From positions 59,090-123,089 of the forward strand of contig CAZPQU010000004.1 of NCBI GenBank assembly GCA_964589075.1: 64,000 nucleotides of DNA. Direction: 5' to 3'. The notes beneath the pieces are model-generated. The model ran no database searches and was not told where the DNA came from. It saw nothing but the letters and a program-made list of their open reading frames with translations. Origin of the DNA: an uncultured Candidatus Izemoplasmatales bacterium. Lineage in GTDB: Bacteria; Bacillota_I; Bacilli_A; MAG-NZ. A program made the position numbers and the translations under genes. Numbering within the stretch: position 1 is the first letter of the stretch; every line of letters begins with the position of its first letter. This document shows positions 11,297 to 50,212 of this stretch, in pieces.

Positions 11297-11318
11297 TAGG
11301 TTCCTCCATATAGTCTAT

Positions 11319-12309: not shown

Positions 12310-12321
12310 ATTTCACTTCTT

Positions 12322-12370
12322 AAAAAATTACAGATTTTTTACTATTGTATAAAATAGATGTAGGTTTGAA
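12322..12370 (-). promoter_or_regulatory. conserved cassette promoter-like module (TGTAAC module)
   Basis: The minus-sense sequence ...TTTATACAATAGTAAAAAATCTGTAATTTTT aligns with the modules at 13671-13720, 24321-24362 and 28472-28520. Confidence 0.4.
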
Positions 12371-12404
12371 ACAAAAAAGGCCCTCAAGTTTGGGGGTCAT
12401 GAGA

Positions 12405-12495
12405 GTTCAACATTAGTACCCACATACATTAGGCTAAGGTTTTCAAAGATCTACGCCACTAAGATATCAAATGAGGGGGACGTATTATGTCACAT
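12405..12495. repeat. 91-nt island repeat, copy 2
   Basis: 5 mismatches to the consensus. The core reads GTTCAAC. Confidence 0.9.
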
Positions 12496-12567
12496 TAAAA
12501 AAAAGTCCTATTTTTGGACTTTTTTCGATTATTGTTAGAAGTAACCCTAGAATATGAAACTAGTGTA

Positions 12568-13629: not shown

Positions 13630-13670
13630 TTTAATACCTCCCATTTAACTTTAGCACATAAAACGATCCT

Positions 13671-13720
13671 CAAAAGTTACAGTTTTTTCACCATTATGTA
13701 TAGTTGGTGTGCGTTGGCGA
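13671..13720 (-). promoter_or_regulatory. conserved cassette promoter-like module (TGTAAC module)
   Basis: Minus-sense CTATACATAATGGTGAAAAAACTGTAACTTTTG. Homologous to the modules at 12322-12370 and 28472-28520. Confidence 0.4.
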
Positions 13721-13752
13721 AAAAAAAGACCTCCAATTTGAGGGTCATAGAT

Positions 13753-13843
13753 GTTGAACATTAGTACCCACATACAATAGGCTAAGGTTTTCAAAGAACT
13801 ACACCCCTAAGATATCAAATGAGGGGGACGTATTATGTCACAT
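13753..13843. repeat. 91-nt island repeat, copy 3
   Basis: Identical to the consensus. Confidence 0.9.
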
Positions 13844-13992
13844 CAAAAAAAAAATTCATTTTATTGAACTTTTTTTTGAAATATGTTTTCATATTATCAA
13901 CCAACAATTTTTGAACATTACAGTTTTAGCATCTAATACAAGATAATAAAGTGTCCAACAATTAGATTGCAACACAATTTATGACTAATTTA

Positions 13993-14961: not shown

Positions 14962-16213
14962 AAAAGTATGGCAAAGACACCATTTCAAACTCAGAGCAAA
15001 CTCTACTACCATGGTTAATATTGTGGAGGATACACCCCCCTAAGCAATCCGGAAGTAATTTGCATTCCATGCACTTTTTATCTTCAAAGCAGTTCAACGC
15101 TTGGTACCAATCAAATATTTTATTACCATCAAGTTGTAACTCCCCATCATCATCAATAAAACCAATTTGTGCTTTCTCTTGTGAAAGGACATTTAGACAT
15201 TTCCAAACTGTTAAATCTGGAAGAATATAAAGGAAGTTTTCATTCGTACAGGATTCACAGGATCTATTATAATGAATATTACTCACAGTATTGTATCCTA
15301 TTTCAACTGCCATTTTGTATAAGTCATTAAAATCAGCCGAAGAATTCTCATTATTACCCTCAAACATTTCTGTGTCATAAACAGCACGGAAGTATACTTT
15401 CATTTTGCTTCTATATTCTGGCAAAACAGATTCTAATGTTTCCAGTATTTCTTCATTTGAGTTGTTATTGAGGTTAATTCTTAATATAAAATGAAACTCC
15501 TCCACGTCGAGGTATTTTGATATTGTGTCATTTATCTTACCCATTATTAAATCATATGATTTTTTTCCTGTTTTAAATTTTCTAGTTTGATCGTGTGTTT
15601 CCCTAGACCCATCAATAGTAATCTGCATCATTTTGCAGTTATTCTTGATAAGTTCCGACATTATATCTTCCGTCAAAAGTGAGCCATTAGTAATTATTGA
15701 GTTTCCAAAGTCTGTGTTTACTTCCTTACATATTTGCGAAGTGTTATTTATTAGGTTAATTAATTCACTACTAAACAACAATGGTTCTCCTCCAAATAAA
15801 CTCATTTCAAGATAAGTGTAGAATTTACTATACTTCTTAACGTATTTTTCAATAGTCTCGAAATAGTCTTTCTTTTTCACGCTATTTCTAAAAGGTTCTT
15901 CAAAACAATACTCACAGGCAAAATTACACTCCATGGTAGGTACTAGTATCAAATTCAATTGAGAGTTGTCAAAGAATTTTCTGTCAAAAAGGAACTTAAC
16001 TTTCTTGAATTCGTTCTCATCTTGAAGTACAATGAAACCATTCTCTACTAACTCACTGTACTGCATATTGTTTGGAAATTTATTCATTTCCTGTACAATT
16101 TCAGGTAGAGATGTATCCGGATCAATGCTCATAAATGCTTTTGTTACGGAATTATAAATTACCTCTTCTCCATTTATTACTTTATCTATATTATAATAAC
16201 TACTTTTATACAT
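14951..16213 (-). CDS. radical SAM / SPASM-domain peptide maturase
   Basis: CNFACEYC (Cx3Cx2C), GGEPLL, and C-terminal Cys clusters (CESC...WKC...CMECKLLPDCLGGC). Confidence 0.8.
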   Translation of the reverse strand: MYKSSYYNIDKVINGEEVIYNSVTKAFMSIDPDTSLPEIVQEMNKFPNNMQYSELVENGFIVLQDENEFKKVKFLFDRKFFDNSQLNLILVPTMECNFACEYCFEEPFRNSVKKKDYFETIEKYVKKYSKFYTYLEMSLFGGEPLLFSSELINLINNTSQICKEVNTDFGNSIITNGSLLTEDIMSELIKNNCKMMQITIDGSRETHDQTRKFKTGKKSYDLIMGKINDTISKYLDVEEFHFILRINLNNNSNEEILETLESVLPEYRSKMKVYFRAVYDTEMFEGNNENSSADFNDLYKMAVEIGYNTVSNIHYNRSCESCTNENFLYILPDLTVWKCLNVLSQEKAQIGFIDDDGELQLDGNKIFDWYQALNCFEDKKCMECKLLPDCLGGCILHNINHGSRVCSEFEMVSLPYFYAE

Positions 16214-16290
16214 AATCTTTACGAGTGATATTCACTCTTCCTTTCACGTTTTTTTGGAGTTCAACAATGAGAATACTATTTTAGTTTATC

Positions 16291-16464
16291 CTATGCTGCA
16301 GTGGGACAATTTCCTGTACAAGTACAAGCATCTCTAGGCGAGATGTACAGAGATTTGCCTACTTCAGTAGCTGATTCTTCAATTTTCTTTACAGTATTTA
16401 ATTTGGCGTTTCTTATGATTGTAAACATCTTTGATTTATTATTTTTCATTGCTTCTTTTTTCAT
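16291..16464 (-). CDS. RiPP precursor peptide (57 aa, Cys-rich C-terminal core DACTCTGNCPTAA)
   Basis: AGGAG 6 nt upstream of the ATG at 16464. Lys-rich leader followed by a 3-Cys core. Located immediately upstream of the rSAM gene. Confidence 0.6.
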   Translation of the reverse strand: MKKEAMKNNKSKMFTIIRNAKLNTVKKIEESATEVGKSLYISPRDACTCTGNCPTAA

Positions 16465-16532
16465 AATATCCTCCTGAATTTTATGTATATTTGGATTACT
16501 GATAATCCATTGTATTCTCATTGTGAACCCTG

Positions 16533-18281
16533 CTAATAATACAGTTGTGACTCCCAAAGTTTTTTATACAAAGTATCAGAACTTAGTAGTTCTTCATGAC
16601 TTCCAACTTCTGTAGTCACTCCATCATTTAATAAGTAAATTTTGTCCATTCTTTTTGCAATGCTCAATCTGTGTGTAATCACTATCACCGTTTTGTCTAG
16701 TGATGAAATAAGATTATTTAACTCATTTTCTTGAATCGGATCAATTGAACTAGTCGGTTCATCCATAATTATAATCTTTGAATCAATATATAAGGATCGT
16801 GCTAATGCAATTCGTTGCCATTCTCCTCCTGAGAAATCTGAATTACCAAACTCCAGTCCTATATGGCTGTTTTTATCTTGTTTCATCCTATCTAGTCCAA
16901 CTAGGGACAGCAGTTCATCTACTCGTAAGACTGCATCTTTCTTATCCACATTCTTTAATTGTGATAAATTATCAAGAACGATATTTTCAAATAATGTGTT
17001 CTCGTATTTGTTAAATTCTTGCAAGAGTGCACTTGATTTACTAATTCTAAACCTAGTCATCTCTTTGTGCTCGATGCCATCAAAACTTATTGTACCGCTT
17101 TTTAATTTCAAATAACCCATGATTATTTTTGCCAATGTTGTCTTTCCTGCTCCATTTAAACCTACAATAGCAATTTTTTCTCCACTACTTATTTCAATGT
17201 TGACATCCTTAATTACTTTGGTAATACTTGTTGGGTAATGATACACACCTGATTTAACTGTCAATGAATTAAAGCTATGTGAAATAGTCTTCTCTTTTTT
17301 TTGATCTATAAAGGAGAAATATGGCTTAACCAAAAATATAAATTTGGAAAAGTAACCTGCGCCTACAAACAACTCTGTGTATTGCATATTTAGAATAGTT
17401 ACAGCTGAAATTGTAGCCATAAACTGTGGAAAATTAATATTCCCCATAAAAAGCAAGTAAGCTGAAAAGACATAAATTGATAATTGTGAGAGACTCTTAA
17501 TTAGACCTAGTACTGCTTTATATTTTAAAACTCTCATCTTATTTTTTAGTAGACCTTCCTGAAGTATATTTCCTGTTGAAGTCCACTTGTTTTTAAGTTC
17601 ACTATAACAATGAATAGCTTTGATTTCCTTAAAAGACCTAATTTTAGTCAAAGAATCAAACCAATCTTTTTCAACCTTTGAGAGTTCCATTTCTTTTGAC
17701 CTATATCTTACGGCAATAGTTGCCTCAATGAACTGTTCAATAAATGATGGTATTGCTGCGAGAAATATGAGAATCCAAAATGTTGAATTGAAAGTAGATA
17801 TATATTTCCCAGTAATTACAATTCCAATTATTATAGCAACTGCATCAATCACATACTCAGTAATCCTATAGATATTAATACCTGCAACTTGAGCACTCCA
17901 AATACCATTATAAAACCTTGGATCTTCATAGTTGTCTACTTGCAGATCATTGCATTTTGAATGTATCGCTGTCCTAATCTTTTTTTCAAATCGTGGTATT
18001 CCACCGAGTTGGACAACCAAACGTTTATACAAGACAATGTATCCCCTCATGAGAATGTTATATAACGAATAAACTGCTATAACTATCATGAATGCTCCGT
18101 ACCCTATCTCTTTCTCTAAGATAGTCGTGTACAACGAAAGACTTAATCTAACCCCTAAAACAGGCAATAAGGCATAAGCCATATTAACAACAATCATTCC
18201 TACAAAATGTTTCGGTAAAATATTGAAACAGAGTGACATGGAACGCCACACAACCCATTGACTAATTTTTGTCATAAACAT
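16533..18281 (-). CDS. ABC transporter, fused permease/ATPase (exporter)
   Basis: TM domain plus Walker A GLNGAGKTT, signature FSGGEWQR and Walker B IIIMDEPTS. GAGGAG lies upstream of the Met at 18281. Confidence 0.8.
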   Translation of the reverse strand: MFMTKISQWVVWRSMSLCFNILPKHFVGMIVVNMAYALLPVLGVRLSLSLYTTILEKEIGYGAFMIVIAVYSLYNILMRGYIVLYKRLVVQLGGIPRFEKKIRTAIHSKCNDLQVDNYEDPRFYNGIWSAQVAGINIYRITEYVIDAVAIIIGIVITGKYISTFNSTFWILIFLAAIPSFIEQFIEATIAVRYRSKEMELSKVEKDWFDSLTKIRSFKEIKAIHCYSELKNKWTSTGNILQEGLLKNKMRVLKYKAVLGLIKSLSQLSIYVFSAYLLFMGNINFPQFMATISAVTILNMQYTELFVGAGYFSKFIFLVKPYFSFIDQKKEKTISHSFNSLTVKSGVYHYPTSITKVIKDVNIEISSGEKIAIVGLNGAGKTTLAKIIMGYLKLKSGTISFDGIEHKEMTRFRISKSSALLQEFNKYENTLFENIVLDNLSQLKNVDKKDAVLRVDELLSLVGLDRMKQDKNSHIGLEFGNSDFSGGEWQRIALARSLYIDSKIIIMDEPTSSIDPIQENELNNLISSLDKTVIVITHRLSIAKRMDKIYLLNDGVTTEVGSHEELLSSDTLYKKLWESQLYY

Positions 18282-19944
18282 ACATACTCCTCTGAGCATT
18301 ATACAAGTTACTGTATTTGCCATTATTCATCATTAAGCTCTCATGCTTTCCAGATTCAACAATCATTTTTTGATCCAGGACTACTATGCAATCTAATTTT
18401 TTTACTGCACCCAATCTGTGTGTAACAAAAATAGTTGTCTTGTCTTTAAACACTTCTAAACACATTTCAAACATTTCCTTCTCAGCAATAGGGTCAAGAT
18501 TTGAAGTAGGTTCATCTAGAATTATAAGATTACAACTGCTCAGCAATAGTCTTGCAATTGCTAGTCTTTGTGTCTCACCTTTTGACAATGACGTTCCCTC
18601 ACTTGTAATTAGTGATATTTTTGTATTAATTCCATTGGATAAACTATTGACTTTTTCTAGCATATTAACTTTGCCTAACGCTTCAAATAATGTAGTATTT
18701 GTAGTAGTTGACTCGTTTCCAAGGAGAATAAATTCTTTAACTGTTAAGTTGAATAAATTAAAATCCTGAAAAAGGACTGCAGCTTTTATGCTTTTACATG
18801 TACCCTCATATTTTCCTTCATAAAGCCCCATTAGTATTTTTATTAAAGTGCTTTTACCTGAACCGTTTTCTCCAACTATTCCATAATGTTTCCCCTTCTT
18901 AAAGACAAAGTTAACATCAGTTAGAACAGTGTCGTTCTCAATATACGAAAAACTAATATTCTTCAAGGAAATCTCTTCTTCGCTTTCGTAGTGTGTAGTA
19001 TCATCTTCGATTTTGAAAAAATCACTTAAGGAATTCCTCAGAGTATTAAATTCCTCAATCCCCTTATACCTCTCACTGAACAGTGCTACTCTTTGAATCA
19101 CCATTCCTGTGCTACTAATTATTCCTGTATAAACACCTATACTTATAATATTCGTATTTAGCGGTACAACAAAAATAATATAAGTAATTACTCCTAATAA
19201 AATCAATGCAATCTCTGATATAAATTGATATCTAAATCTAGTTTTTCCATTTGCAATGTTGGATAACAAACCTTTATCAAAAGCACTGCTGAATCCTCTC
19301 TCCAGAAACGCTTGATGACCATAAATAGATCTCTCATATGCATACTCCCGCTTCGCAAGAGTGTCAGAGTAGTAATGAGATCTTCTCATATTTGACATAT
19401 ACTTCTTCCAAAAATCTCCTGTTTTCTTGTTGGACCATTTGATTATTATATATATAGCAATGATTAATAAAAAATATATTAAAAGAATCAGAAAGTTTGT
19501 AGAAGAAGCTAAATATGAAAAAATCATAAAGAACACCACAGCACTAATCAGTGCTCCTACTGCATCAATGGATTCAAACAAAATCGTTATAAAGTTTTTA
19601 CTTTGTAAGACTAAGTCTTGATTTTTATTTTTCTCAACCTCCAATAGATTTAATCCTTGGAGTTTATCAATTACCTTTTCCGCTACAGTATACTTATATT
19701 TTCTTTCAAACCATATTTTCACAACATCTTTTAACAAAAGCAGCATTAGTTCAATAATCATAAGTGAGCCAATTATAACTAAATACTTTATTACTTTAGA
19801 ATTTGAGTTGAAGATACTATCTATTAATAATACTTTCATTACTATTCTCACACACAATGTTGATGTAATAGCTGTTTCTATTAGAAGCAAAATAAACCTC
19901 AATCTCACATAAAAGTGCTTGTTTTCTATAGTGGCCAATTGCAT
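18262..19944 (-). CDS. ABC transporter, fused permease/ATPase (exporter)
   Basis: TM domain plus Walker A GENGSGKST, signature LSKGETQR and Walker B LIILDEPTS. Confidence 0.8.
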   Translation of the reverse strand: MQLATIENKHFYVRLRFILLLIETAITSTLCVRIVMKVLLIDSIFNSNSKVIKYLVIIGSLMIIELMLLLLKDVVKIWFERKYKYTVAEKVIDKLQGLNLLEVEKNKNQDLVLQSKNFITILFESIDAVGALISAVVFFMIFSYLASSTNFLILLIYFLLIIAIYIIIKWSNKKTGDFWKKYMSNMRRSHYYSDTLAKREYAYERSIYGHQAFLERGFSSAFDKGLLSNIANGKTRFRYQFISEIALILLGVITYIIFVVPLNTNIISIGVYTGIISSTGMVIQRVALFSERYKGIEEFNTLRNSLSDFFKIEDDTTHYESEEEISLKNISFSYIENDTVLTDVNFVFKKGKHYGIVGENGSGKSTLIKILMGLYEGKYEGTCKSIKAAVLFQDFNLFNLTVKEFILLGNESTTTNTTLFEALGKVNMLEKVNSLSNGINTKISLITSEGTSLSKGETQRLAIARLLLSSCNLIILDEPTSNLDPIAEKEMFEMCLEVFKDKTTIFVTHRLGAVKKLDCIVVLDQKMIVESGKHESLMMNNGKYSNLYNAQRSMYVYDKN

Positions 19945-20460
19945 AAAAAAAACCCCTTCTCATTTAATAATTAATGAACATTATAAACTATCAAAAAATA
20001 AATCGTACTCTATTAAGTATTGTTTACTCTTAGTAGGTCACATATATTTGAATCAGTGACACTACTAAACAATATCATAGAATACAACGTTATAAAGTTA
20101 CAAATATTCTACTTTCCTTTACCTTAGCCGTTTCAGTTGTTAAGACTGCACATTTAATGCTCAATACTAGCGATTCTAACTTTAAATTATAGCTATATAC
20201 AGACTTCTAATGAAAAAATCATAAAGAACTAATTGTATCAATAGTAGAATAGATAACATCAAACACAACAATATCAACAGAATGATTAACAGTTTTTTGG
20301 TTAAGGAATATGAACTACACGGGTATTGGAACATTATGCTATAATTCACATATATTTCACCTTAGAATAAAACGAAACCACTGGGTATTGAAGTCGACAA
20401 AATGTATAAAGTAGGCGTTGAATGGAATAGAAAAAGACCCCTCTTTTAGGGATCACAATA

Positions 20461-20551
20461 GTTGAACATTAGTACCCACATACAATAGGCTAAGGTTTTC
20501 AAAGAACTACACCACTAATATATCAAATGAGGGGGACGTATTATGTCACAT
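20461..20551. repeat. 91-nt island repeat, copy 4
   Basis: 2 mismatches to the consensus. Confidence 0.9.
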
Positions 20552-20748
20552 CAGAAAAAAAGGATAAATTATCATCCTTTTTCAATTTGAACCTGCCCCT
20601 TAAAGTTTAAATACATAACAGAATTTTTCAATTAATTTGTACTGTGTCAAGGATACCTCGTTGTTTAATTCATACTTAAATCCATTTATATAAGTTACAT
20701 AATGTTATGCTTTTTTTCCTTAGTTTACTCTTCGAAGTAAACTTTACA

Positions 20749-21573
20749 TTATACAGCACCTTTTGAATGTGCAAACATGCAAACCTCAGAACTGGTAATA
20801 TACTTTCTTTCTAAAACATCAATATATTTGTTGTGTGATCTTACTATATGATTAACAAATTCTATCTCATTTCTAAACCCCTTAATCTTCAATAGAACTT
20901 GGTCAGATGATTTACCAGAATTTATGAACTCAGACACTACTTTCTCAAGAGCGATAAATTGTTTAGAAATAGTATTAAGTCTCATAAGATAGCTTTGTCT
21001 CCTAATCACTGTTATCAACCTATTTATGTTATTCAACTCTATTGAACTCTGAAAAACATTTAAGAACTCGTCTTCTTTGTAAGCAACCCCTAAATCATTA
21101 TATTTACTATTAAACCATTTATCCCTACAATCTACAATCTCGACTTTTGCTTTTTGCAAGAGTTGTAGCTCAGCAAAGTTTGTTCTCTCAAATAAAATAA
21201 AGTCGATTTTATTTAGTAGACATGTTACATGATTCCTTAAATCGTGGAATATATGTTCAAAATTGAATCTAACTCCTTCTAGCAGTTTCTCCGATTCAAA
21301 CACTGTAGAAATGATTGTCGAATACTCCTCACCCTTTTTTAACGAATGTTTGAATGAATACTTCAACTTCCTATATCTTGAGGCATCTGAAAAAACAAGT
21401 GAGGAAATTATTTTCATTTTTTTAATGTAAACACTAAAATTGTAAGGGCATAATATCACCCGACCCTTCATTGAAACTGTAAAAACATTCTCATAAAATT
21501 TTACGCCCTTTTTATCAATGTTATGACAGTTATTTTTACAATATGCTGTGTTGTTGAATGAAGTTTTTCTCAT
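20749..21573 (-). CDS. helical protein with a histidine-kinase H-box-like motif, no ATPase domain seen
   Basis: FEHIFHDLRNHVTCLL resembles a HisKA phospho-acceptor box. No N/G1/G2 boxes found. 4-nt ATGA overlap with the upstream receiver gene. Confidence 0.35.
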   Translation of the reverse strand: MRKTSFNNTAYCKNNCHNIDKKGVKFYENVFTVSMKGRVILCPYNFSVYIKKMKIISSLVFSDASRYRKLKYSFKHSLKKGEEYSTIISTVFESEKLLEGVRFNFEHIFHDLRNHVTCLLNKIDFILFERTNFAELQLLQKAKVEIVDCRDKWFNSKYNDLGVAYKEDEFLNVFQSSIELNNINRLITVIRRQSYLMRLNTISKQFIALEKVVSEFINSGKSSDQVLLKIKGFRNEIEFVNHIVRSHNKYIDVLERKYITSSEVCMFAHSKGAV

Positions 21574-22247
21574 TTCACTATTCCATTGACAAAACTGAAA
21601 ATCATACTTATTGCCCGACCCGCTTGAACCATCCTTCCAATATCTATACCACTCGTTTCAAACTGATTAGAATATCCACTAATACTTCTACAAAACAGAT
21701 CCTCTATTATAGCAATATCCTTATTCTTGACATTATCTTTCCTTAATTCGTTTTCTATTTTCTTCCATTGTATTACCGGGTTTTTGCTGTCACTGATGAG
21801 TTTGTCAAGTTCATTCGACAGTTCATTTCCAGACAGACCTTTTTGGATAAATCCATCTAATATCTCATAGTTTATACTGATATCAGATTCATTTATCCCT
21901 GTATATAGAACAACAATTTTATTACTATATTGCGATTTTAATTGTAAGGCTGCTTCGACTCCACCGTGCTTGCTGTCATCAGATACGTGGACTCCCTTTA
22001 TGTCGCATAATATAATATCATATACTTCATAAGTGCTAATATGCTTGAAGTTATCATCAACTACAACTTGACCATATCCTAGCCTATCGATGGAATTCCT
22101 GTCAAATCCCTCGTCATCAATTACACAAATACGGTACCTTTTTCTGTCCACAGCATTCTTTGAAAACATGTTTGAATACTTATGTCTATCTTCCTTTATT
22201 GACTTCAGTTTTTCAGTACTTAAGTAATTAGTCTTTTTTACAAACAT
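21570..22247 (-). CDS. receiver (REC) domain protein with a short helical C-terminal extension
   Basis: Receiver landmarks in order: ICVIDDE, DIILCDIKG, KIVVLYTG, GFIQKG. No recognisable DNA-binding output domain. Confidence 0.5.
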   Translation of the reverse strand: MFVKKTNYLSTEKLKSIKEDRHKYSNMFSKNAVDRKRYRICVIDDEGFDRNSIDRLGYGQVVVDDNFKHISTYEVYDIILCDIKGVHVSDDSKHGGVEAALQLKSQYSNKIVVLYTGINESDISINYEILDGFIQKGLSGNELSNELDKLISDSKNPVIQWKKIENELRKDNVKNKDIAIIEDLFCRSISGYSNQFETSGIDIGRMVQAGRAISMIFSFVNGIVK

Positions 22248-22402
22248 TATTTTGTCTCCCTACCATTTTCACTAATTATACACCATAATTACTTCAGTAA
22301 AAAGCGCATGAGTTTGATAATGGACTCATAGTGATACAAACTCGAACTAATTTACTTATTGATTTCCAGTGTAGTCAGATACTAAATAGACTGGTCCTAA
22401 GA

Positions 22403-22493
22403 GTTGAACATTAGTACCCACATACAATAGGCTAAGGTTTTCAAAGAACTACACCCCTAAGATATCAAATGAGGGGGACGTATTATGTCACAT
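22403..22493. repeat. 91-nt island repeat, copy 5
   Basis: Identical to the consensus. Confidence 0.9.
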
Positions 22494-22624
22494 TTAAAAA
22501 AAAGTCCAGTTTATCGAACTTTTTTTGATACATAGGATTTCAATTTTGTAATATTTAAAAGTATCAAAAGTGTAACATTTCAACAACTCCATATATGATA
22601 GACTTAGGTCAAGGAGGTGAAGGC

Positions 22625-22816
22625 ATGAGACTTATAGACACAACAGAAATGGACGGAACTAGAATTACAATTAACGCTGATAATATATCATTCATAAGAG
22701 GATATGAAACCTATACCAGAGTATTCCTCAATACCTCAGATGCAAATTACATTAACTTTATTGATGTTAATGATACATATGAAGTATTTCAAAATTTGTT
22801 GCAACAACTACAATAA
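22625..22816 (+). CDS. small protein (63 aa), FlbD/LytTR-like beta-rich pattern, function unknown
   Basis: AGGAGG RBS 7 nt upstream of the ATG at 22625. The only gene in its cassette, and on the opposite strand to most cargo. Confidence 0.4.
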   Translation: MRLIDTTEMDGTRITINADNISFIRGYETYTRVFLNTSDANYINFIDVNDTYEVFQNLLQQLQ

Positions 22817-22843
22817 AAAAGACCATTCTATTTGGTCACAGAA

Positions 22844-22934
22844 GTTGAACATTAGTACCCACATACAATAGGCTAAGGTTTTCAAAGAACTACACCCCTA
22901 AGATATCAAATGAGGGGGACGTATTATGTCACAT
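22844..22934. repeat. 91-nt island repeat, copy 6
   Basis: Identical to the consensus. Confidence 0.9.
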
Positions 22935-23030
22935 TAAAAAAAAAGTTCAGATTTTGAACTTTTTTTTAGCAGTTAAAATATAATCTCACTACCTTGTATC
23001 TCAAACTTATCGTCATTTTACAAGGGATAC

Positions 23031-24254
23031 TTAGTTACTTAGAACTTGGGTTAGATTTTTTAGTCTAGCTAGTACTTCATCATATGTAATGACTACCACG
23101 TCACTAAAACTGTTTCTAAATAGTTCAAAAGACTTCTCTCTGTCTATACCTACTATTTCATCTAATCTTCCAATAATTACATAAGCTATTGGTCTGTATG
23201 CTTTTGTTTGATAATCCGAATGAGTATTCCTAACCGGCAAATCAATTATAAAGTTAAACCTTTGTATGCATACTTGAGTGATTGAACCACTCAATTCATT
23301 ACTAGGTCCAAAGACTGTATCGGGTCTGTAGGCGTTAGTTTTCAGCAATGGAGTAGTAGGTTTCTTAATTTCAATCACGGATACAACTTGATCGTTCCAT
23401 TTTGCAATAAAATCCGTGAATGTACTTCCTTTTCCACTGATTTTTGTTCCACCAGTGAATCTATCTTCACCTATCATATGACAAGTAGTTGGAATTACAA
23501 GTGGTAACAGAAAGGAGTTGGTAGTAAAGAACTCCTGACATTCTGGTTCTGATGGACTCCCTCCTATTAAAGTTTCAAAATCCTCGATAGCTAACTCCAA
23601 TATTGATCTTCCAATTTTAGAGTTTAGCTCTTGAAGTTTCTCAATATCAAATTTTTCTAATAAAAGGTCAATATTATCTTTATTTTCCAAGTATGCTTTA
23701 ACAGATTCAGGAGACTCAGAAACCTTTAGTAGTATCTCTGGATTAATTAATTTCAGTGTAGCCGTTATGTCTTCAATATTGTCCCCAGATAGCAAATCAA
23801 TCAAGTCATTTAGTTCTGTTTTTTTTGCAAATCTAAGCACTTTATTTACTAATTCCTTATCCTTCTCAATATTGGAGTTAAACAACAAATGTTGCTCTCT
23901 TAAAAAATAGTAATCATTATTTCCAAAAGATAAATCTGCATCTTCATACATTTTCTTAAGTTCACCTGATATGCTTATTAATTCAAAAAGGTCATCTCTA
24001 CTCAAGTCAACTTTAGTCCACTCCCCAGCTTTTAAGTTATTAAGAGAAATAGAGTCTTGGTCGCTCCAATCCTCACTGGTCTTCTTTTTTTGGTAAATCA
24101 ATTTCCCTGAAACTATTTTCTCCGGGTTAGAACTTGCTCTAACTAATTTAGGATAATAAACTAATCTTCCGGTTTTGTTACTTCTTAGTACGACACCAGT
24201 ACATTTTGAGGTCGCCCTCGAATCACTCATTACGTTTATAGATATTAATTGCAT
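23031..24254 (-). CDS. Shedu-like defence nuclease (DUF4263-type PD-(D/E)xK C-terminal domain)
   Basis: C-terminal FTDFIAKWNDQVVSVIEIKKPTTPLL ... ELSGSITQV matches the D...E-x-K plus downstream Q pattern of SduA-type proteins. 407 aa is a typical length. Confidence 0.55.
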   Translation of the reverse strand: MQLISINVMSDSRATSKCTGVVLRSNKTGRLVYYPKLVRASSNPEKIVSGKLIYQKKKTSEDWSDQDSISLNNLKAGEWTKVDLSRDDLFELISISGELKKMYEDADLSFGNNDYYFLREQHLLFNSNIEKDKELVNKVLRFAKKTELNDLIDLLSGDNIEDITATLKLINPEILLKVSESPESVKAYLENKDNIDLLLEKFDIEKLQELNSKIGRSILELAIEDFETLIGGSPSEPECQEFFTTNSFLLPLVIPTTCHMIGEDRFTGGTKISGKGSTFTDFIAKWNDQVVSVIEIKKPTTPLLKTNAYRPDTVFGPSNELSGSITQVCIQRFNFIIDLPVRNTHSDYQTKAYRPIAYVIIGRLDEIVGIDREKSFELFRNSFSDVVVITYDEVLARLKNLTQVLSN

Positions 24255-24320
24255 ATTAAGCCTCCCTATTATACTTTCATGATCGCGTTTTGTTATATTA
24301 TATCATCTCATACTCAATAA

Positions 24321-24362
24321 TAAAGTCACATTTATTTCACCATTGTGTAAAATGGATATGGT
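24321..24362 (-). promoter_or_regulatory. TGTAAC/TGTGAC-type promoter-like module upstream of the Shedu-like gene
   Basis: Minus-sense CCATTTTACACAATGGTGAAATAAATGTGACTTTA aligns with the other cassette modules. Confidence 0.35.
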
Positions 24363-24421
24363 CACTTGTACATTATATAAATGTAAAGTAAACTTTAGGT
24401 ATAATTACAAAGGAGATTAAT

Positions 24422-24988
24422 ATGAAAAAAAGTAAAAGAAAAGGTGTTATTAAACAAGTAGTTCGGGATTTGACATATTCAATTGTGTCGTTTATGTATT
24501 TGATATTATCACTGCTTGCATTTTATCAGATTGGATTTACAATTAGTCTAATACTATTGGGTCTTTTTGCATTAGCAAGCATTCTTATGATGCTGAGTTT
24601 TTTTTTAGGAAATCAACCTTATAAAACATATCTTGCGACATTCATAGGCTCATTTTTCCTCTCTGTGGGTGTTTTCTTTAATATTGCTAAGTTAATCTCT
24701 ATGATAAACAATAAGTATCTCACTGAGATTCTAATAATGGGGACTATCCTAGTTATTGGTTATGCTCCCATATTAGTAAATCACATATTATTTAAAACTA
24801 GAAAAAGTTATGTCTCGAGATTATCAATGTATGTAATTGCATTAACAATGTTACTAATAGACTACTTCCTAACGGTATTTGAGGGAGGGACTTCCCCCTT
24901 ACAAAGTGCAGTATGGATTATACTTCTTGTTGACAATATAATTCAGTTGGTAATGAAAGAAGTATCGAACCGACTAGTGGAGGAATAG
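24422..24988 (+). CDS. membrane protein (5-6 TM), function unknown
   Basis: AGGAG RBS. 188 aa, strongly hydrophobic. Confidence 0.5.
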   Translation: MKKSKRKGVIKQVVRDLTYSIVSFMYLILSLLAFYQIGFTISLILLGLFALASILMMLSFFLGNQPYKTYLATFIGSFFLSVGVFFNIAKLISMINNKYLTEILIMGTILVIGYAPILVNHILFKTRKSYVSRLSMYVIALTMLLIDYFLTVFEGGTSPLQSAVWIILLVDNIIQLVMKEVSNRLVEE

Positions 24989-25070
24989 AGTGTTTCAACA
25001 TAAAAATTCAAAAATTGTAACTTTTAGAATGATTATAAAATGCTATTATAGATTAAGGAGGACTTTTTAA

Positions 25071-25292
25071 ATGAAAAAAAACGTCCATGTAACAAAGCAT
25101 CCCGAGGGATGGCAAAGTAAAAAGGCTGGTAACTCAAGAGCGTCTTCTGTACATTCTACCCAAGCTGAGGCTATAGCAAGAGGTAGAGAATTAGCGAAAG
25201 CAGAGCAATCAGAATTACTAATTCACGGCCGAGATGGCAAAATAAGAGAAAAAGATAGTCATGGACCTGACCCAAGAAGGATTAAAGGTTAA
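25071..25292 (+). CDS. DUF2188-like small protein
   Basis: Pattern VHVTKHPEGWQSKKAGNSRASSVHSTQAEAIARGRELA...LIHGRDGKIREKDSHGPDP. AGGAGG RBS. GC content is locally higher than the surroundings. Confidence 0.55.
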   Translation: MKKNVHVTKHPEGWQSKKAGNSRASSVHSTQAEAIARGRELAKAEQSELLIHGRDGKIREKDSHGPDPRRIKG

Positions 25293-25294
25293 AC

Positions 25295-26011
25295 ATGATA
25301 GCTATATTTCAGACGGCTACAATTATTTTTGTTTTTATACCTGGAATAATGAGATCATATATGTTCTCGACTTATTCTTCAAAAAAGAACCACAAGAATT
25401 CCTGGGATTATTTAAGTGAAATAATTTCATTCTCTACCCTTATTTATTCGATTTCATTTGTAATATTTATTATATATGATTTTATATTTTTCTCGAAGTT
25501 TAAAGGGCTGGACCTACTGGGACTTGCTTTAAGAGCTGAAGATAGTGATAAAATATTAATATCGATATTCACTTTATTAATAGTATCGTTTTTTGCCTTT
25601 ATTTGGATTACACTCGAACTCAAAAGAGAAAACTCGGGACAATCTGGACCAATGAGTAAGCTAACAAATAGTGAAAACACAATTAATAACACAACTCTTG
25701 AAACCTTCTTCGATTTACATGTAAAATATCGAAATAGAGAAATAGTAGATAAACTATCTTTCGTTCAAATTTTAGATTTAAAAGAAAGAATACTTTATGA
25801 GGGATTGATTAATTCCATTCCCCTAAGTGACCAGGATGAAAGATACGAGAGAACAATACCATTACTCCTTGAAAATACCTATGCTTACAAAATGAGTGAT
25901 GATTGCACAGAGATTACTGAAGACTTGTATGAATCTCAATATTTAACTTTAGGCTTTAACCCTGAACATATGACTATAAGAATAGAAGGAGAAAGTGACT
26001 TAGATGATTAA
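25295..26011 (+). CDS. membrane protein, function unknown
   Basis: 238 aa with 4 N-terminal TM helices and an acidic C-terminal domain. Starts 2 nt after the previous stop. Confidence 0.45.
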   Translation: MIAIFQTATIIFVFIPGIMRSYMFSTYSSKKNHKNSWDYLSEIISFSTLIYSISFVIFIIYDFIFFSKFKGLDLLGLALRAEDSDKILISIFTLLIVSFFAFIWITLELKRENSGQSGPMSKLTNSENTINNTTLETFFDLHVKYRNREIVDKLSFVQILDLKERILYEGLINSIPLSDQDERYERTIPLLLENTYAYKMSDDCTEITEDLYESQYLTLGFNPEHMTIRIEGESDLDD

Positions 26012-26162
26012 AAAAGAACATCCACAAAATCCCAACCCTAATAAGGGTAAAGATTCAAGCAAAAACAGTACAGTTACTCTTCACGATCACTCTGTAAAAC
26101 GCTCAAAAACTACACCTAGGAATACTCCAAACCCTAAACCACCAAAACGACCAAAGGGTTAG
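26004..26162 (+). CDS. possible small basic protein (52 aa), absent from the supplied ORF track
   Basis: ATG at 26004 overlaps the stop of the upstream gene, with GGAGAAAG upstream. Product is Lys/Pro/Asn-rich. Followed by the terminator at 26229. Confidence 0.3.
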   Translation: MIKKEHPQNPNPNKGKDSSKNSTVTLHDHSVKRSKTTPRNTPNPKPPKRPKG

Positions 26163-26228
26163 ATGTAGAATTTTAAAGGTTGTTATACTAAGAAAAAAAC
26201 AGACCAGTTTATGAAGTGAACCCCAAAA

Positions 26229-26261
26229 GGTAGACATATGAAAAAAGAGTCTACCTTTTTT
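26229..26261 (+). terminator. intrinsic terminator of the plus-strand operon 24422-26162
   Basis: ggtagac-N13-gtctacc followed by TTTTTT. Confidence 0.55.
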
Positions 26262-26403
26262 CGTTCTTCGTCTTGTTGTTTTGTAGAAATACATCCACTC
26301 ATGAACTTGATTTATGTATTCCTCTAGTGAAGTGATATTATTAATGTAGAGAGTTTCTTTACTTATAAGATTAAAAAAGACCCACTTTGCCGGGGTCATA
26401 GAA

Positions 26404-26494
26404 GTTGAACATTAGTACCCACATACAATAGGCTAAGGTTTTCAAAGAACTACACCCCTAAGATATCAAATGAGGGGGACGTATTATGTCACAT
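26404..26494. repeat. 91-nt island repeat, copy 7
   Basis: Identical to the consensus. Confidence 0.9.
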
Positions 26495-26655
26495 TAAAAA
26501 AAAAGATGAAATTTCATCTTTTTAAATTTATTCGTTTGTTGTTTATTTTGTATCCAGTACTTATCCTTAGTTACTTAGACAACGCAATGTCATCAACGAC
26601 ATATAATCCATTCACCCTAGTAACTTTTTTCAGAAATATCTATAACAACTCACAT

Positions 26656-27018
26656 TTACTCTTTAGCTTCGTTAGTATTACTCTTCATCATCTTTTTTTT
26701 TGTTTTTCTAAGTAGTTTCCTGGTGTGTCTATCTGCTGGAAATATACTGTCGTCAACAATAAAGTAGTGAGATTTACACTCAAAATAGAAGTTACCAACT
26801 GATGGCGTCAAGGATAAAGTCCCATCATAAATTAAACACCAATCATCTTTTCCCAGTATCATATACACTGTCTCTCCGCATCCACATGGGCATTTATGCA
26901 TCACAGCTCTGTTTTTGATCGATATATAAATTACTAAATCATCAACAGTCTCTAAGTTGTGAAATTCATTAACGAATTCAGTTTTAATTTTTATCATGAA
27001 TAAAGTCACCTTCCTCAA
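26656..27018 (-). CDS. small Cys/His-rich protein (DUF6527-like, putative zinc-binding)
   Basis: HKCPCGCGETVYM...W...LSLTPSVGN...CKSHYFIVDDSIF. Overlaps the end of the E1-like gene by 35 nt. Confidence 0.45.
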   Translation of the reverse strand: MRKVTLFMIKIKTEFVNEFHNLETVDDLVIYISIKNRAVMHKCPCGCGETVYMILGKDDWCLIYDGTLSLTPSVGNFYFECKSHYFIVDDSIFPADRHTRKLLRKTKKKMMKSNTNEAKE

Positions 27019-28240
27019 TCACAGTGGTAATGACATTACTTTCCTTAGAGTCATGATAAAAATCAATTGATTGTTTCCATCTAATTACAGCTTGACAAGC
27101 AATCAAGGAATTGATTTCTGCAATTTGAATGTTTGTGGAGTAATCATCATCTTCATTATCGTAAACAATATTTTTTTCGAGATGCTTATTCATGTTACCG
27201 TCAAAGTAAACTAAGCTGCACATAGCATACATCTTACCCTCTCCCAATCTTACGCTTATTCCACAATCAATAAATGGGATTTTCTGTTCAACTAGAAATT
27301 CGACTATTCTTTCTTTGTCTGTTCCTCCATCAATGCTTATAAATACGAAATCAAACCCTTTTATTTCATCTAAGTTAGATTCATCAACATTATAAGGATG
27401 TGGAATAACATCGTACCTAATAAACGAATATCTGCTTGCCTGAAGAGTGGCTTTATTAATTTTACTGTTAACCGTCTCTAATGATAGTGCACCTGGCGTT
27501 CTAAAGGCATTGTGTCCATTAAACTCGTCACCATCAAATAAATGAATTTCAGATACAGGAGTCCTAGCTAAAAAGTCGAGTATATAAGACCCAGTTCCTC
27601 CTACACCTATTAATGCAATTTTCATTTTTCTAAATTTGTTTGCAAGAGAATTAAGATGAAGACTACTGCTATCATCATCAGGATAAATAAAAACACCCTC
27701 AGTTTCTTGATTAAATTCTACTTGTTCTGATTTCTGCTTAAGATCATCCATTGATATTCCGTCACGATCCATTACAAAAAAAGCAGGATCACTGATGTAC
27801 TCATAATATTGAATTATTTTCTCATAATGGGAATTATAGTATTTACATTCTGGTACAGTTGACATTAAAAACTTTGTAGTAAGACCATTAGAATATGGGA
27901 ACTGTACTGCTCCTGGTTTGATTAAATCCTTTATTTCCTCACCATCTATCTCATGTGGAAATTCTCCATCAAAATAGACGGTATGTGAGTTTTGGGCAAC
28001 TGCAGGAGTCATTATTTTTGTGGTGGGGTGCTGGACCATAATGAATGCTGGGATCCCTCTCAAAATAAACGTTTCAATAATAAGGCCAAGTTTTATTGAA
28101 CCATCTTTGCAAATATATGGCACATTTGTGATTGCGATATTTTTATTTCTTAACAGTATTACATCACAACCACGTTCTGTGACCACCTTTAGCTCATTAT
28201 TAAGATCCTTTCGTGTTACCAATGCTAAATACCATGCCAT
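26984..28240 (-). CDS. ThiF/E1-like adenylyltransferase with an uncharacterised ~200-aa N-terminal domain (possible E2-like)
   Basis: Rossmann motif KIALIGVGGTGSYILDFLARTPVSEIHLFDGDEFNGHNAFR, then FVFISIDGGTDKERIVEFL...PFIDCG, as in ThiF/MoeB/E1 folds. Confidence 0.6.
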   Translation of the reverse strand: MAWYLALVTRKDLNNELKVVTERGCDVILLRNKNIAITNVPYICKDGSIKLGLIIETFILRGIPAFIMVQHPTTKIMTPAVAQNSHTVYFDGEFPHEIDGEEIKDLIKPGAVQFPYSNGLTTKFLMSTVPECKYYNSHYEKIIQYYEYISDPAFFVMDRDGISMDDLKQKSEQVEFNQETEGVFIYPDDDSSSLHLNSLANKFRKMKIALIGVGGTGSYILDFLARTPVSEIHLFDGDEFNGHNAFRTPGALSLETVNSKINKATLQASRYSFIRYDVIPHPYNVDESNLDEIKGFDFVFISIDGGTDKERIVEFLVEQKIPFIDCGISVRLGEGKMYAMCSLVYFDGNMNKHLEKNIVYDNEDDDYSTNIQIAEINSLIACQAVIRWKQSIDFYHDSKESNVITTVIEEGDFIHDKN

Positions 28241-28427
28241 CTACTGCATCTATGCAGTTTCCTTTCAATAACTTTGACCCTTGATAAGTAACAGTGTACT
28301 TCGGTTTTTCACCGGGACCTGTTTTCTTTCCAAATAATTTTACTACGTCTTTATAGCAAACTTCCTTTTTTTTATATGGAAAAGATTTTTTTCCAATAAA
28401 AATTGTTATCTCTTTTTCATTATTCAT
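28200..28427 (-). CDS. ubiquitin-like beta-grasp protein (single multiubiquitin-type domain)
   Basis: 75 aa. Alternating beta pattern ITIFIGKKSF...VCYKDVVKLFG...YTVTYQG...IDAVDGMVFSIGNTKGS. First gene of the operon. Confidence 0.45.
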   Translation of the reverse strand: MNNEKEITIFIGKKSFPYKKKEVCYKDVVKLFGKKTGPGEKPKYTVTYQGSKLLKGNCIDAVDGMVFSIGNTKGS

Positions 28428-28471
28428 TTTGTTACCTCCTTTTTCTATATTATATCACCTTCTATGCACTT

Positions 28472-28520
28472 GAAAAGTTACAAATTTTCTACTATTGTGT
28501 AAAGGATGTGGGGTTGAATA
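28472..28520 (-). promoter_or_regulatory. conserved cassette promoter-like module (TGTAAC module)
   Basis: Minus-sense CCTTTACACAATAGTAGAAAATTTGTAACTTTTCA. TTTACA-N17-TAACTT lies 45-90 nt upstream of the Ubl gene. Confidence 0.4.
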
Positions 28521-28551
28521 AAAAAAGACCTCTAATTTAGGGGTCATAGAA

Positions 28552-28642
28552 GTTGAACATTAGTACCTACATACAATAGGCTAAGGTTTTCAAAGAACTA
28601 CACCCCTAAGATATCAAATGAGGGGGACGTATTATGTTACAT
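28552..28642. repeat. 91-nt island repeat, copy 8
   Basis: 2 mismatches to the consensus. Confidence 0.9.
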
Positions 28643-28746
28643 TAAAAAAAAATCCCTTTTATCGGACTTTTTTTGATTCAGTTGATCTAAACTTCTTATA
28701 ATTAAAAGTTGACTAAAGTGTAACTTTTATAGCGAATTTCTCACCT

Positions 28747-30102
28747 TTAGAATCCCAGCCTTCGTGAATATCTTTCATATAAACTGAGCATTAAAATCTC
28801 TATTTCGGTCATCGGTACACCAATAATCTCTAGCATACATGCTGTATGCACTCTCCTCAATGTCAATACGTCTGCATAATCTATCGATGTAAAGTTCGTT
28901 TCAGAACCATGTGCAACATCATTTCTATTCTTTAGCACTCTTTGTACAATATCTTCAGGTTGCTTTTTGTTACCACGTAATCTCAGGTAGTATGAGAATT
29001 GCACACCATCCTTGAAAGAAACATTTAAGTATCTATTGAACATAAACTCGAGTTTAGTTCTAGTAGTCACTTTACTTATAGTACTAACAAGTTCAGCAAA
29101 ATCTTCTTTATATGTATCTCCATGTTCTTTTATTAGTGTTTTCTTTATCACTTTAATTTTTCCTAAATTTGAGTGACCCTTAAAGTGACCTTTGTCTATC
29201 TTCTTCTTCAATAGCTTGTATGAGTACTCAATTGCTGCAACAGCATTTAAAATATCAAATTTGCTATTACTCAACTCTTGGGATCTTACAATATAATCTA
29301 TGTCGACTTCCTTCTTATCTATTGCTTCAATCAAGTTACCGAACACATGCGAAATATCATCAAACATTAGTGAGTTAGAATAATTCTTATTATAAGTCCC
29401 TTCATCCCTAAAGTCTATCTCGCAAAATGTAGTTCCATAAACATACTCGTGACTCAGTACTATATATGATGCTTGGGTGAAATCATTCATCTTTCTTCTA
29501 AGTAAAAAACTAAAAACATAGTTTAGAAGACCTCTCAGGTAAACCATTTCATCGAATGAATTAATTTTCGAGAACTCAATATATGCTCTTGGTACCTCTT
29601 TATTATAATTGTTTTGGCTAGGAACATTACAATAGGAGATCCTCATAGTTGTTTCTATTTTCCCTAGATGTAGTTCATAGTTTTCTCCTATATGACATGC
29701 AAAAAGGTCTTCATCGACTTGTTGCATATTAAACAACTTTATTTTCTTTGGAGTTAAATAAAAGTCATCTAAAGCATCAGAGTAAAATCTCACCGCACCA
29801 GATTTATATAACTCGAAGGGATTGTTGTCTGAAGTAGCTTGCACTTTAAACGATGCATCGTAGGCTGATACTTTTTCATTAAAGAACCATTTCCCAATGC
29901 TACAATAACTAAAATAGTCTCTTTTATCTTCATCTAGTCTTACCCATTTGTGCGATATCAACCTTCTGAAATCCAGTTGATCCCCTAATTTTGGAAAATC
30001 ACCCTTTCTATCAAGCGTGAAATGAAGTTCATCTATATTGTAATAGTATCTACCCTTGTATCCTTCAAACTCGAACGGTCCACTCTTTGAAAAATTCTCC
30101 AT
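28747..30102 (-). CDS. HEPN-like (ApeA/Abi-type) protein, candidate abortive-infection effector
   Basis: C-terminal R-x4-H motif in VLKNRNDVAHGS. 451 aa, single-gene unit directly after repeat copy 8. Confidence 0.4.
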   Translation of the reverse strand: MENFSKSGPFEFEGYKGRYYYNIDELHFTLDRKGDFPKLGDQLDFRRLISHKWVRLDEDKRDYFSYCSIGKWFFNEKVSAYDASFKVQATSDNNPFELYKSGAVRFYSDALDDFYLTPKKIKLFNMQQVDEDLFACHIGENYELHLGKIETTMRISYCNVPSQNNYNKEVPRAYIEFSKINSFDEMVYLRGLLNYVFSFLLRRKMNDFTQASYIVLSHEYVYGTTFCEIDFRDEGTYNKNYSNSLMFDDISHVFGNLIEAIDKKEVDIDYIVRSQELSNSKFDILNAVAAIEYSYKLLKKKIDKGHFKGHSNLGKIKVIKKTLIKEHGDTYKEDFAELVSTISKVTTRTKLEFMFNRYLNVSFKDGVQFSYYLRLRGNKKQPEDIVQRVLKNRNDVAHGSETNFTSIDYADVLTLRRVHTACMLEIIGVPMTEIEILMLSLYERYSRRLGF

Positions 30103-50184: not shown

Positions 50185-50212
50185 TTAGAATAGGAAATTG
50201 AGGAGTGATAAA

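Follow-up and report, generated by a model that had tools for sequence, protein, structure and literature searches.

Repeats at the cassette boundaries of a tRNA-Leu-integrated element from an uncultured Izemoplasmatales bacterium: candidate junction modules derived from an attachment site

Why should a nearly invariant 93-nt sequence be found eight times, always in the same orientation, between the gene sets of a single mobile element? This question is raised by a 64,000-nt stretch of DNA (hereafter the window) from an uncultured Candidatus Izemoplasmatales bacterium (GenBank assembly GCA_964589075.1, contig CAZPQU010000004.1, positions 59,090 to 123,089), in which the repeats sit within an integrative element of ~40.6 kb (window 10667-51256) integrated in tRNA-Leu(UAG). 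A first-pass annotation, made from the sequence alone, had described each repeat as a small transcription unit with its own promoter and terminator. We found that the first copy is the right attachment site (attR) of the element, that the promoter block of the repeats is duplicated at the integrase gene (int) and that each junction between two accessory gene sets, most of them anti-phage, has a repeat. We propose, with roughly an even chance of being right, that the repeats are cassette-junction modules derived from the right-end attachment site, recombinable by the Xer-like integrase of the element and transcribed for ~100 nt across the crossover.

A repeat that ends at the attachment site

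All eight copies (c1 to c8, Table 1) are direct repeats, on the minus strand only, between 10.6 and 28.7 kb of the window. Direct reading and pattern counts against shuffled sequences bore out the copy number and the coordinates of c6 given by the first-pass annotation: three sub-patterns of the conserved part, hereafter the body, gave eight matches each, against 0.00, 0.01 and 0.87 expected, and none of 100 shuffles reached eight. The body spans 93 nt with a mean pairwise identity of 0.97, which falls to 0.62 in the 30-nt flanks on each side (background ~0.49). Four bodies are identical, and c1 and c5 deviate at the first base alone. Read along the minus strand from 22960 to 22815, c6 consists of a T-run, AATGTGACATAATACGTCCCCC and the following sequence (the part after the T-run begins AATGTGACATAATACGTCCCCCTCATTTGATATCTTAGGGG), the heptamer GTTCAAC, the hairpin GACCAAATAGAATGGTC and TTTTTT; TGTGACATAAT occupies 22933-22923, with TG at 22931-22930 and CATAAT at 22928-22923. 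Conservation starts exactly at the -16 TGTG motif, and the 57-nt spacer between the promoter block and the heptamer is invariant. The change of TG to TA reported earlier for c8 is indeed present, as TGTA instead of TGTG. What had looked like an inverted ninth copy, at ~27.0 kb, proved to be an artefact.

The first copy places the end of the body in a wider context, which the first-pass annotation had overlooked: the repeat is a right-end attachment module, ending where c1 turns into the 3' end of tRNA-Leu. The last 24 nt of the tRNA, GTTCAACTCCTGTTATCCGCACCA, occur at exactly two places in the window, 51233-51256 and 10671-10694, the latter just after the c1 body, and the identity between the left attachment site (attL) and attR extends over 28 nt (51256-51229 versus 10694-10667), beginning at GTTCAAC. 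The 3' part of the tRNA is thus directly repeated at both ends of the element and a tyrosine integrase gene abuts the tRNA, which is the standard signature of a tRNA-integrated element, with attL at the tRNA and attR at c1; the predicted insertion point is the T-loop of tRNA-Leu(UAG). The integrase scores best with XerC, XerD and XerA models and obtains 65 and 42 bits with the NCBIfam integron-integrase models, whose cut-offs are 265 and 435 bits. A relative sharing 44% identity adjoins the 3' end of the transfer-messenger RNA (tmRNA) gene in a "Mycoplasmatota bacterium" genome, and another sharing 39% identity adjoins the 3' end of a tRNA-Tyr gene.

At the heptamer, one block of conservation gives way to another: the identity among copies 2-8 (0.97) stops at GTTCAAC, where the attL/attR identity begins. 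This switch indicates that the body is the element-side arm of the attachment site, and we infer that it ends at the crossover with the tRNA. Past the heptamer, 11 nt of copies 2-8 match the consensus TTCTATGACCC at 7-11 of 11 positions, resemble the TCCTGTTATCC of the tRNA and form the 5' arm of the hairpin, termed X, that follows the body; this semi-conserved right half (TyCTrTGAyCC) resembles the 3' part of the tRNA. With the tRNA block, copies 2-8 share only GTTCAAC(T) and these degenerate 11 nt, short of a complete attachment site of the cis-mobilizable element (CIME) type, and the body showed no significant similarity to the 5' part of tRNA-Leu (best local match CTTAGGGGTGTAG / CTTCGGGGTGCAG, 174/2000 shuffles). 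An imperfect palindrome of 28 bp read by eye around the heptamer, GGGTACTAAT-GTTCAACT-TCTATGACCC, looks like a simple tyrosine-recombinase core. In c2 the heptamer reads GTTGAAC (12405-12411), precisely the reverse complement of GTTCAAC, itself nearly palindromic. Should the heptamer serve as the overlap region, c2 would be expected to be inactive or biased towards inversion.

Transcription of the repeat unit

The first 28-35 nt of the body (ATGTGACATAATACGTCyCyCTCATTTG) recur once more, directly upstream of the Shine-Dalgarno (SD) sequence and ATG of int. This partial ninth copy was found by blastn and detected by nhmmer with E = 2.8e-5. Its 28-nt block ATGTGACATAATACGTCTCTCTCATTTG, which differs from the body by two C>T changes, lies in the matching orientation 29 nt upstream of the GAGGAG-N8-ATG of int and holds the only good -10 element placed to include the SD in an int transcript. 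Such paralogy with the int promoter supports an extended -10 element far better than a consensus match could, and TGTGnCATAAT is very likely a real promoter element; on this point the first-pass annotation was right, the block having the proper orientation at int and a hairpin with a T-run standing before both. The paralogy also implies that the nine promoters answer the same signal. A scan for two-hexamer promoters was uninformative in this AT-rich DNA (102 found versus 101.7 expected), and the rest of the body showed only marginal similarity to the int gene and the P' arm (24/500 and 33/500 shuffles). The promoters face outward, Pint towards attL and the c1 promoter towards attR, so that in an excised circle they would converge across attP.

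Each unit is framed by hairpins. Upstream of all eight bodies is T1, an A-run, hairpin and T-run resembling a bidirectional terminator, whose stem varies among copies with pairing kept (GTTCA/TGAAC, GATGA/TCATC, GTCC/GGAC, GGATGA/TTATCC). Downstream, X is a variable hairpin followed by a T-run in six of the eight copies (c2, c3, c4, c6, c7 and c8), with energies from -4.4 to -10 kcal/mol; five of these six fold better than shuffled sequences (p = 0.000-0.031; c2, p = 0.10). Hairpin conservation was judged from folds of the single copies, the MAFFT alignments of such short hairpins being out of register. The intrinsic terminator that had been assigned to the repeats therefore holds for these six; c1 has the native tRNA terminator in its place and c5 a hairpin without a T-run. 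A terminator ~100 nt past another terminator makes sense mainly if transcription starts between them.

A short non-coding unit bracketed by its own promoter and, in six of eight copies, an intrinsic terminator has the layout of a small RNA (sRNA) gene. The predicted ~102-nt RNA folds no better than shuffled sequences (z = -0.21), compensatory changes were found in none of the 19 predicted consensus pairs and four of these pairs are broken in some copies. The 5-bp stem CCCCU-N13-AGGGG of the first-pass annotation exists as sequence but not as a conserved structure, being broken without compensation in c2 and c4 (AGTGG) and in a copy outside the window described below (AGGGA). Searches of Rfam gave no match for the unit at the gathering score or at E <= 10, leaving it with neither the covariation nor the described family of a structured RNA or riboswitch, and a target scan of 104 translation-initiation regions gave none above shuffled controls, save spurious open reading frames (ORFs) overlapping the repeats. 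The conserved structured RNA proposed earlier therefore gains no support. A coding role was also rejected, since the body holds short ORFs only, and the longest of them, an 18-codon frame opening with TTG, is cut short in c2 and has a variable C-terminus. The plus strand of every body (e.g. 22907-22935) carries GAGGGGGA-N6-ATG TCA CAT TAA, a strong SD with a 3-codon ORF running into T1 that is probably incidental, and on the minus strand AGGGGTG-N7-TTG resembles the SD/start spacing of int. The sequence makes a transcript of ~100 nt plausible but lends no support to an sRNA that is structured or acts by classical base pairing.

These results bear on two other explanations. The repeats could be free-standing genes for a trans-acting regulatory RNA of ~100 nt, linked to the attachment site by the location of the first copy only; the C-rich 5' motif UCCCCCUC could bind SD regions, or the RNA could be antisense to int read-through transcripts across attP in the circle. 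The promoter paralogy with int, the bracketing by T1 and X (the latter unidirectional, on the minus strand), the coincidence of the conservation start with the TGTG motif and the convergence of the c1 promoter and Pint all fit such genes. So does the conservation of all 93 nt, including 57 nt that a simple recombinase site does not need, at 97% identity in a second host. We nevertheless consider sRNA genes somewhat unlikely: stable or covarying structure, an Rfam family and a target above controls are all missing, the only 5' stem is broken in three copies, and it would be unexplained why the conserved block stops at the heptamer of tRNA identity and why copies stand at every cassette boundary in one orientation.

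The repeats could also be cis-acting leaders or attenuators, in which transcription of the cassette downstream starts at the repeat promoter and the body, responding to a signal, selects between the X terminator and an antiterminator. Pairings for such a switch are available (region 1 CCCCC, region 2 AGGGGU, region 3 (G)ACCCC, region 4 GGGGUC with the U-run), AGGGGU being able to pair with CCCCCU or, in c3, c7 and c8, with the 5' arm of X, and the weak X hairpins make read-through plausible. As the first-pass annotation stated when it raised this alternative, six of the eight units have minus-strand genes downstream, but one of these (at c1) is a host NUDIX gene outside the element, and c6 and c7 have no such gene. 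The cassettes, moreover, have TG-TATAAT promoters of their own beyond X, c5 and c6 offer only a poor antiterminator pairing, and neither an aptamer-like fold nor covariation was detected, which makes an attenuator very unlikely.

Cassettes, element core and occurrence elsewhere

The eight repeats delimit seven segments of 0.26-6.5 kb (Table 1). The largest cassette (13993-20349) encodes a radical SAM protein, two ABC ATPase/permease-type proteins, unknown proteins of 339 and 88 aa and a 55-aa ORF, and looks more like a cluster for the biosynthesis and export of a ribosomally synthesized peptide (RiPP) or bacteriocin than like phage defense. Downstream of X, cassettes are predicted to have separate promoters of the TG-TATAAT type. 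There are 11 occurrences of the motif AAAWYTGTAACTTTT versus 4.3 expected, a count reached in none of 100 shuffles, and nine of these sites lie within the array, mostly just upstream of the cassette TG-TATAAT promoters. TGTAAC stands 22 nt ahead of the -10 element in two cassettes, forms the palindrome TGTTACAGTTTTGTAACA near c2 and is also found 14 nt (GAACTTTTATGTGA) ahead of the int -10 hexamer CATAAT; it looks like a common operator or activator site for cassette promoters. In some copies similarity continues 50-90 nt past T1 or X, as between 22494-22580 and 28642-28728 (repeat family D4, 75% identity), and c2, c3 and c8 share CACATC..TTTATACAATAGTAAAAAATCTGTAACTTTT downstream of X, suggesting that some junctions were duplicated along with adjacent regulatory DNA of the cassettes.

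Table 1. Coordinates of the repeats, the segments that they bound and associated features in the window.
Feature	Coordinates	Strand	Description
Copy 1 (c1), attR	10628..10825	-	T1; body 10780-10688; tRNA-Leu 3' end 10694-10667; native tRNA terminator 10660-10635 + T-run
Copy 2 (c2)	12370..12542	-	Body 12497-12405; most diverged, 5 substitutions; core GTTGAAC
Copy 3 (c3)	13718..13890	-	Body 13845-13753
Copy 4 (c4)	20426..20598	-	Body 20553-20461; X hairpin 20454-20436 + T-run
Copy 5 (c5)	22358..22540	-	Body 22495-22403; X is a different hairpin without T-run
Copy 6 (c6)	22814..22981	-	T1 hairpin 22981-22937; body 22936-22844; predicted start near 22916; GTTCAAC 22850-22844; X hairpin 22837-22821; T-run 22820-22815
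Copy 7 (c7)	26372..26541	-	Body 26496-26404
Copy 8 (c8)	28519..28689	-	Body 28644-28552; first junction past the element core and a HEPN gene, which precedes it
Seven-segment array	10667..28747	-	Bounded by the eight repeats
Segment 1			75 aa; E1-like ThiF/DUF6791; DUF6527
Segment 2			Three plus-strand genes; Shedu SduA (PADLOC 6e-58)
Segment 3			260 nt, near-empty
Segment 4			PDC-M43A-like 225 aa; 274-aa partner
Segment 5			55 aa; two ABC ATPases; radical SAM; 339 aa; resembles a peptide (RiPP) biosynthesis cluster
Segment 6			358 aa, no assigned function
Segment 7			Trypsin-like protease; 106-aa partner
AAAWYTGTAACTTTT sites	12243, 12299, 12323, 13672, 20093, 22566, 25011, 28473, 28714; also 804, 4530
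Xre-type HTH gene upstream of int	49532..49741	+	Candidate regulator of the common promoter/operator block (ATGTGACAT)
Partial ninth copy, integrase promoter region	50101..50193	+	Hairpin GTTCGTTAC-N35-GTAACGAAC + TTTT, then ATGTGACATAATACGTCTCTCTCATTTG (50157-50184), SD GAGGAG, ATG 50213
Xer-like tyrosine recombinase, 315 aa	50213..51160	+	Core-binding and catalytic domains; no room for an arm-binding N-terminal domain; abuts tRNA
tRNA-Leu(UAG), attL	gene 51233-51315; attL to 51229	-	28 nt GTTCAACTCCTGTTATCCGCACCAAATT (51256-51229) duplicated at copy 1

Outside the window the repeat is very rare. A 20-mer of the body had no match in representative genomes of 185,579 species, phage and plasmid collections gave no blastn match, and viral contigs (IMG/VR) contained chance matches (L005-L007) and no genuine copy. 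Among metagenome contigs, one genuine copy was found (L002/L010), another hit (L003) being a chance match, and other contigs bearing proteins of the array came from the same metagenome only. A search for an empty tRNA-Leu site returned only a chance match, in Lactobacillus. The genuine copy, an independent occurrence, is single, with a body 97% identical to that of the array, a T1 hairpin of its own and the right half TCCTATACCCCC, and is flanked on one side by unrelated cargo, a GNAT gene, and on the other by the housekeeping gene truA. The truA gene is 86% identical to that of Candidatus Izimaplasma HR1 and is therefore a host gene; here the module marks where a variable island ends. The islands found at the truA locus of other Izimaplasma-like genomes differ and lack the module, and nhmmer with a nine-copy profile detected no diverged copy at these loci or in the nearest relative of the element. 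That relative (CP074575.1; L008/L012) is located at a tmRNA gene and shares syntenic core genes, including a homologue of a 705-aa core protein (48% identity) and the integrase (44%).

The region upstream of truA (5260-5300 in L010; ~9000-10000 in L016-L019) is a variable island in Izimaplasma-like genomes: HR1 carries an integrase 10 kb upstream of truA, and another contig of the metagenome of the window has a different, cI-like element there. An inverted GTTCGAA-TCCTGTC hairpin with a T-run is found ~115 nt beyond the module in L010.

This distribution hardly suits a selfish miniature repeat (MITE- or REP-like) that spread into intergenic gaps. Several near-identical intergenic copies would be expected of one, but the repeats have neither terminal inverted repeats nor target duplications, keep one orientation within one 18-kb stretch of one element, occur nowhere else in the 64-kb window and are almost absent from public data; we regard this origin as highly improbable.

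A fossil origin has more in its favour. Accretion at tRNA genes is an established concept (PMC5704250; bioRxiv 10.1101/2020.12.28.424599), and the repeats could be inactive scars of attachment sites, left by the serial accretion of related elements at tRNA-Leu followed by deletion of all but their cargo and homogenised by gene conversion. The first copy is a true attR, the right halves resemble decayed 3' parts of the tRNA, the c2 core is mutated, the c5 T-run is lost and the L010 module is single, at an island end. Set against this, segments lacking int that inserted at the tRNA would destroy tRNA-Leu(UAG), because the right halves cannot rebuild the acceptor stem, and seven independent decays to 0.4-6.7 kb of cargo, each sparing T1, body and X, would be unparsimonious. 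The sharp 62%-97%-62% edges at the promoter motif and the crossover heptamer likewise look like selection rather than conversion tracts. We therefore judge scars to be an unlikely source of the array.

The element core (31.8-49 kb) gave no Pfam, PHROG, NCBIfam, PDB or phage match except one methyltransferase, and no terminase, capsid or type IV secretion system (T4SS) family was detected between 31854 and 48938. Three core proteins, of 837, 361 and 361 aa, have a hydrophobic, signal-peptide-like N-terminal segment and a hydrophobic C-terminal segment and look membrane-anchored; the 837-aa protein (and, less clearly, that encoded at 38224-39309) bears LTNPDG...NG..Y-type repeats. The 705-aa protein has N-terminal transmembrane helices and a GPQRVGKD Walker-A-like motif; its AlphaFold model was unusable (pLDDT 38). 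A pipolin was judged unlikely, a motif scan of the two largest core proteins having found no polymerase-like or piPolB-like motifs. The core may belong to a mobile-element class not recognised so far, or to an enveloped virus. Two gene-free stretches at the regulatory end of the element, 49170-49520 (+) and 47440-47940 (-), are GC-enriched (43%), fold far more stably than shuffled sequences (z = -5.39 and -2.78) and are candidate structured non-coding RNAs; neither matched Rfam or resembled the relative element. In the host sequence outside the element, a c-di-GMP-I riboswitch (56643-56724, +; 53.9 bits, above gathering) lies just upstream of a gene for a 1274-aa protein with Ig-like surface domains. 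Direct repeats D2/D3 (7814-9066) reflect duplicated Fer4_19 and zf-CDGSH modules in the adjacent genes 6584-8461 (a glutamate-synthase-like fusion) and 8539-9240.

A candidate cassette platform and its relation to known systems

The features of the repeat can be combined into the following mechanism for a cassette-junction module. T1 would close the cassette upstream as a bidirectional terminator. It is followed by the paralogue of the int promoter with the first ~20 nt of its leader (TGTGnCATAAT), the invariant 57-nt spacer, the heptamer GTTCAAC as the putative crossover with the tRNA, and the right half, which would have been shaped into a hairpin and T-run. The Xer-like integrase, requiring just a simple site of ~30 bp, could recombine any two direct repeats, so that cassettes would leave as circles with one site and enter at any body-type site with the tRNA undamaged; insertion at the tRNA itself would destroy it, X sequences being unable to restore the acceptor stem. 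Induction of int would also set off transcription at every site, because each has its own copy of the int promoter; RNA polymerase would pass the crossover, cover ~100 nt and terminate at X, and T1 and X would serve as insulators. That the short RNA is a structured sRNA acting in trans would be less likely than that it is a by-product, or that it assists recombination in cis or as a regulator. A bolder version, in which the RNA, combining a copy of the crossover site with the 5' end of the int mRNA, is a required or regulatory partner that licenses, guides or throttles Int within a non-integron platform for defense cassettes, is in our opinion distinctly unlikely.

Several observations weigh against junction modules of this kind. 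No direct sign of cassette mobility was found, and recombination between copies is postulated from the sequence. The left half-sites differ strongly (GGGGTGCAG in the tRNA versus GGGTACTAAT in the body), the right half is merely 64-100% conserved among copies and the central base is mutated in c2. The crossover could also fall elsewhere in the 28-nt identity, in a part absent from copies 2-8. A simple recombinase site of ~30 bp does not account for the ~57 nt of the body that lie outside it and are perfectly conserved, and transcription would be expected to start in a C-run (CCCCC), an unfavourable position without a purine. Lastly, the array is carried by one genome only in the collections searched, and in the nearest relative element 10 kb of cargo is free of such repeats and the int promoter is unrelated.

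In function, the proposed junctions would come closest to an integron. Vibrio chromosomal integrons contain near-identical VCR/attC repeats of ~120 bp and anti-phage cassettes (bioRxiv 10.1101/2024.07.02.601686) and provide the best analogy, by which we imply no kinship. Common to both are a one-orientation array of small cassettes with one site per cassette (here eight direct copies and seven segments), near-identical repeats of ~100 bp, a recombinase of the Xer branch of tyrosine recombinases and a defense-rich cargo. In contrast to integrons, the recombinase is not IntI, falling far below the 265-bit cut-off, and is encoded 20-40 kb away, at the opposite end of the mobile element. Folding of the attC type, as an imperfect palindrome, is not seen in the repeats, whose only symmetry is the 28-bp palindrome at GTTCAAC. 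The origin of the site, moreover, is a tRNA attachment site, the int promoter is duplicated in each copy, and the cassettes are self-promoted and insulated by terminators.

Elements that accumulate at tRNA genes share other features with this one. They include accretion arrays formed by ICEs (integrative and conjugative elements), IMEs (integrative and mobilizable elements) and CIMEs (PMC5704250), tycheposon islands (bioRxiv 10.1101/2020.12.28.424599) and pipolins with extra att-like direct repeats (PMC11551731). An integrase by the 3' end of a tRNA or tmRNA gene, a duplicated tRNA 3' end, att-like-flanked segments without int and defense cargo are found in both. The internal repeats described here, however, lack a right part identical to the tRNA, the segments span just 0.4-6.7 kb, and what is repeated is not a partial tRNA but a 93-nt stretch from the element side, equipped with one promoter and two terminators. 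In the dif modules of Acinetobacter plasmids, host XerCD serves 28-bp sites (PMC6449649). Small accessory modules likewise lie there between simple tyrosine-recombinase sites and are shuffled as units, whereas the present sites are all direct (dif sites typically alternate), form part of a conserved 93-bp block and would depend on a recombinase encoded by the element.

The transcribed part of the unit has parallels of its own. The sib element of phage lambda is a retroregulator of int across attP, a single-copy RNase III hairpin without a promoter. Like sib, c1 lies across attP from int and is contiguous with it in the excised form only, where the c1 promoter would converge on int; unlike sib, the unit bears a promoter and is present in eight copies. 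Listeria LhrC1-5 and Vibrio Qrr1-5 are families of several sRNAs, each with a promoter and a terminator to itself. These share with the repeats near-identical units of ~100 nt, a promoter, an intrinsic terminator and a C-rich motif, but the units of the array have no conserved structure or identifiable target, mark cassette boundaries and end at the att crossover. The literature searched contained no description of recombination junctions each with a copy of the integrase promoter and bracketing terminators.

Even if the sites are inactive, the succession of terminator, promoter, 100-nt unit and terminator is a clean natural part. As the module marks cassette boundaries, the genes between the repeats (225/274, 358, 106 and 188/238 aa) are good candidates for new defense functions. 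A promoter copy at each site would couple site activity to the induction of the integrase. To our knowledge, almost nothing is known of the biology of mobile elements in Mycoplasmatota. If the junctions are active, these wall-less bacteria would harbor a second, independently evolved answer to the integron problem of storing and reshuffling defense genes, built from a tRNA attachment site and an Xer-like integrase.

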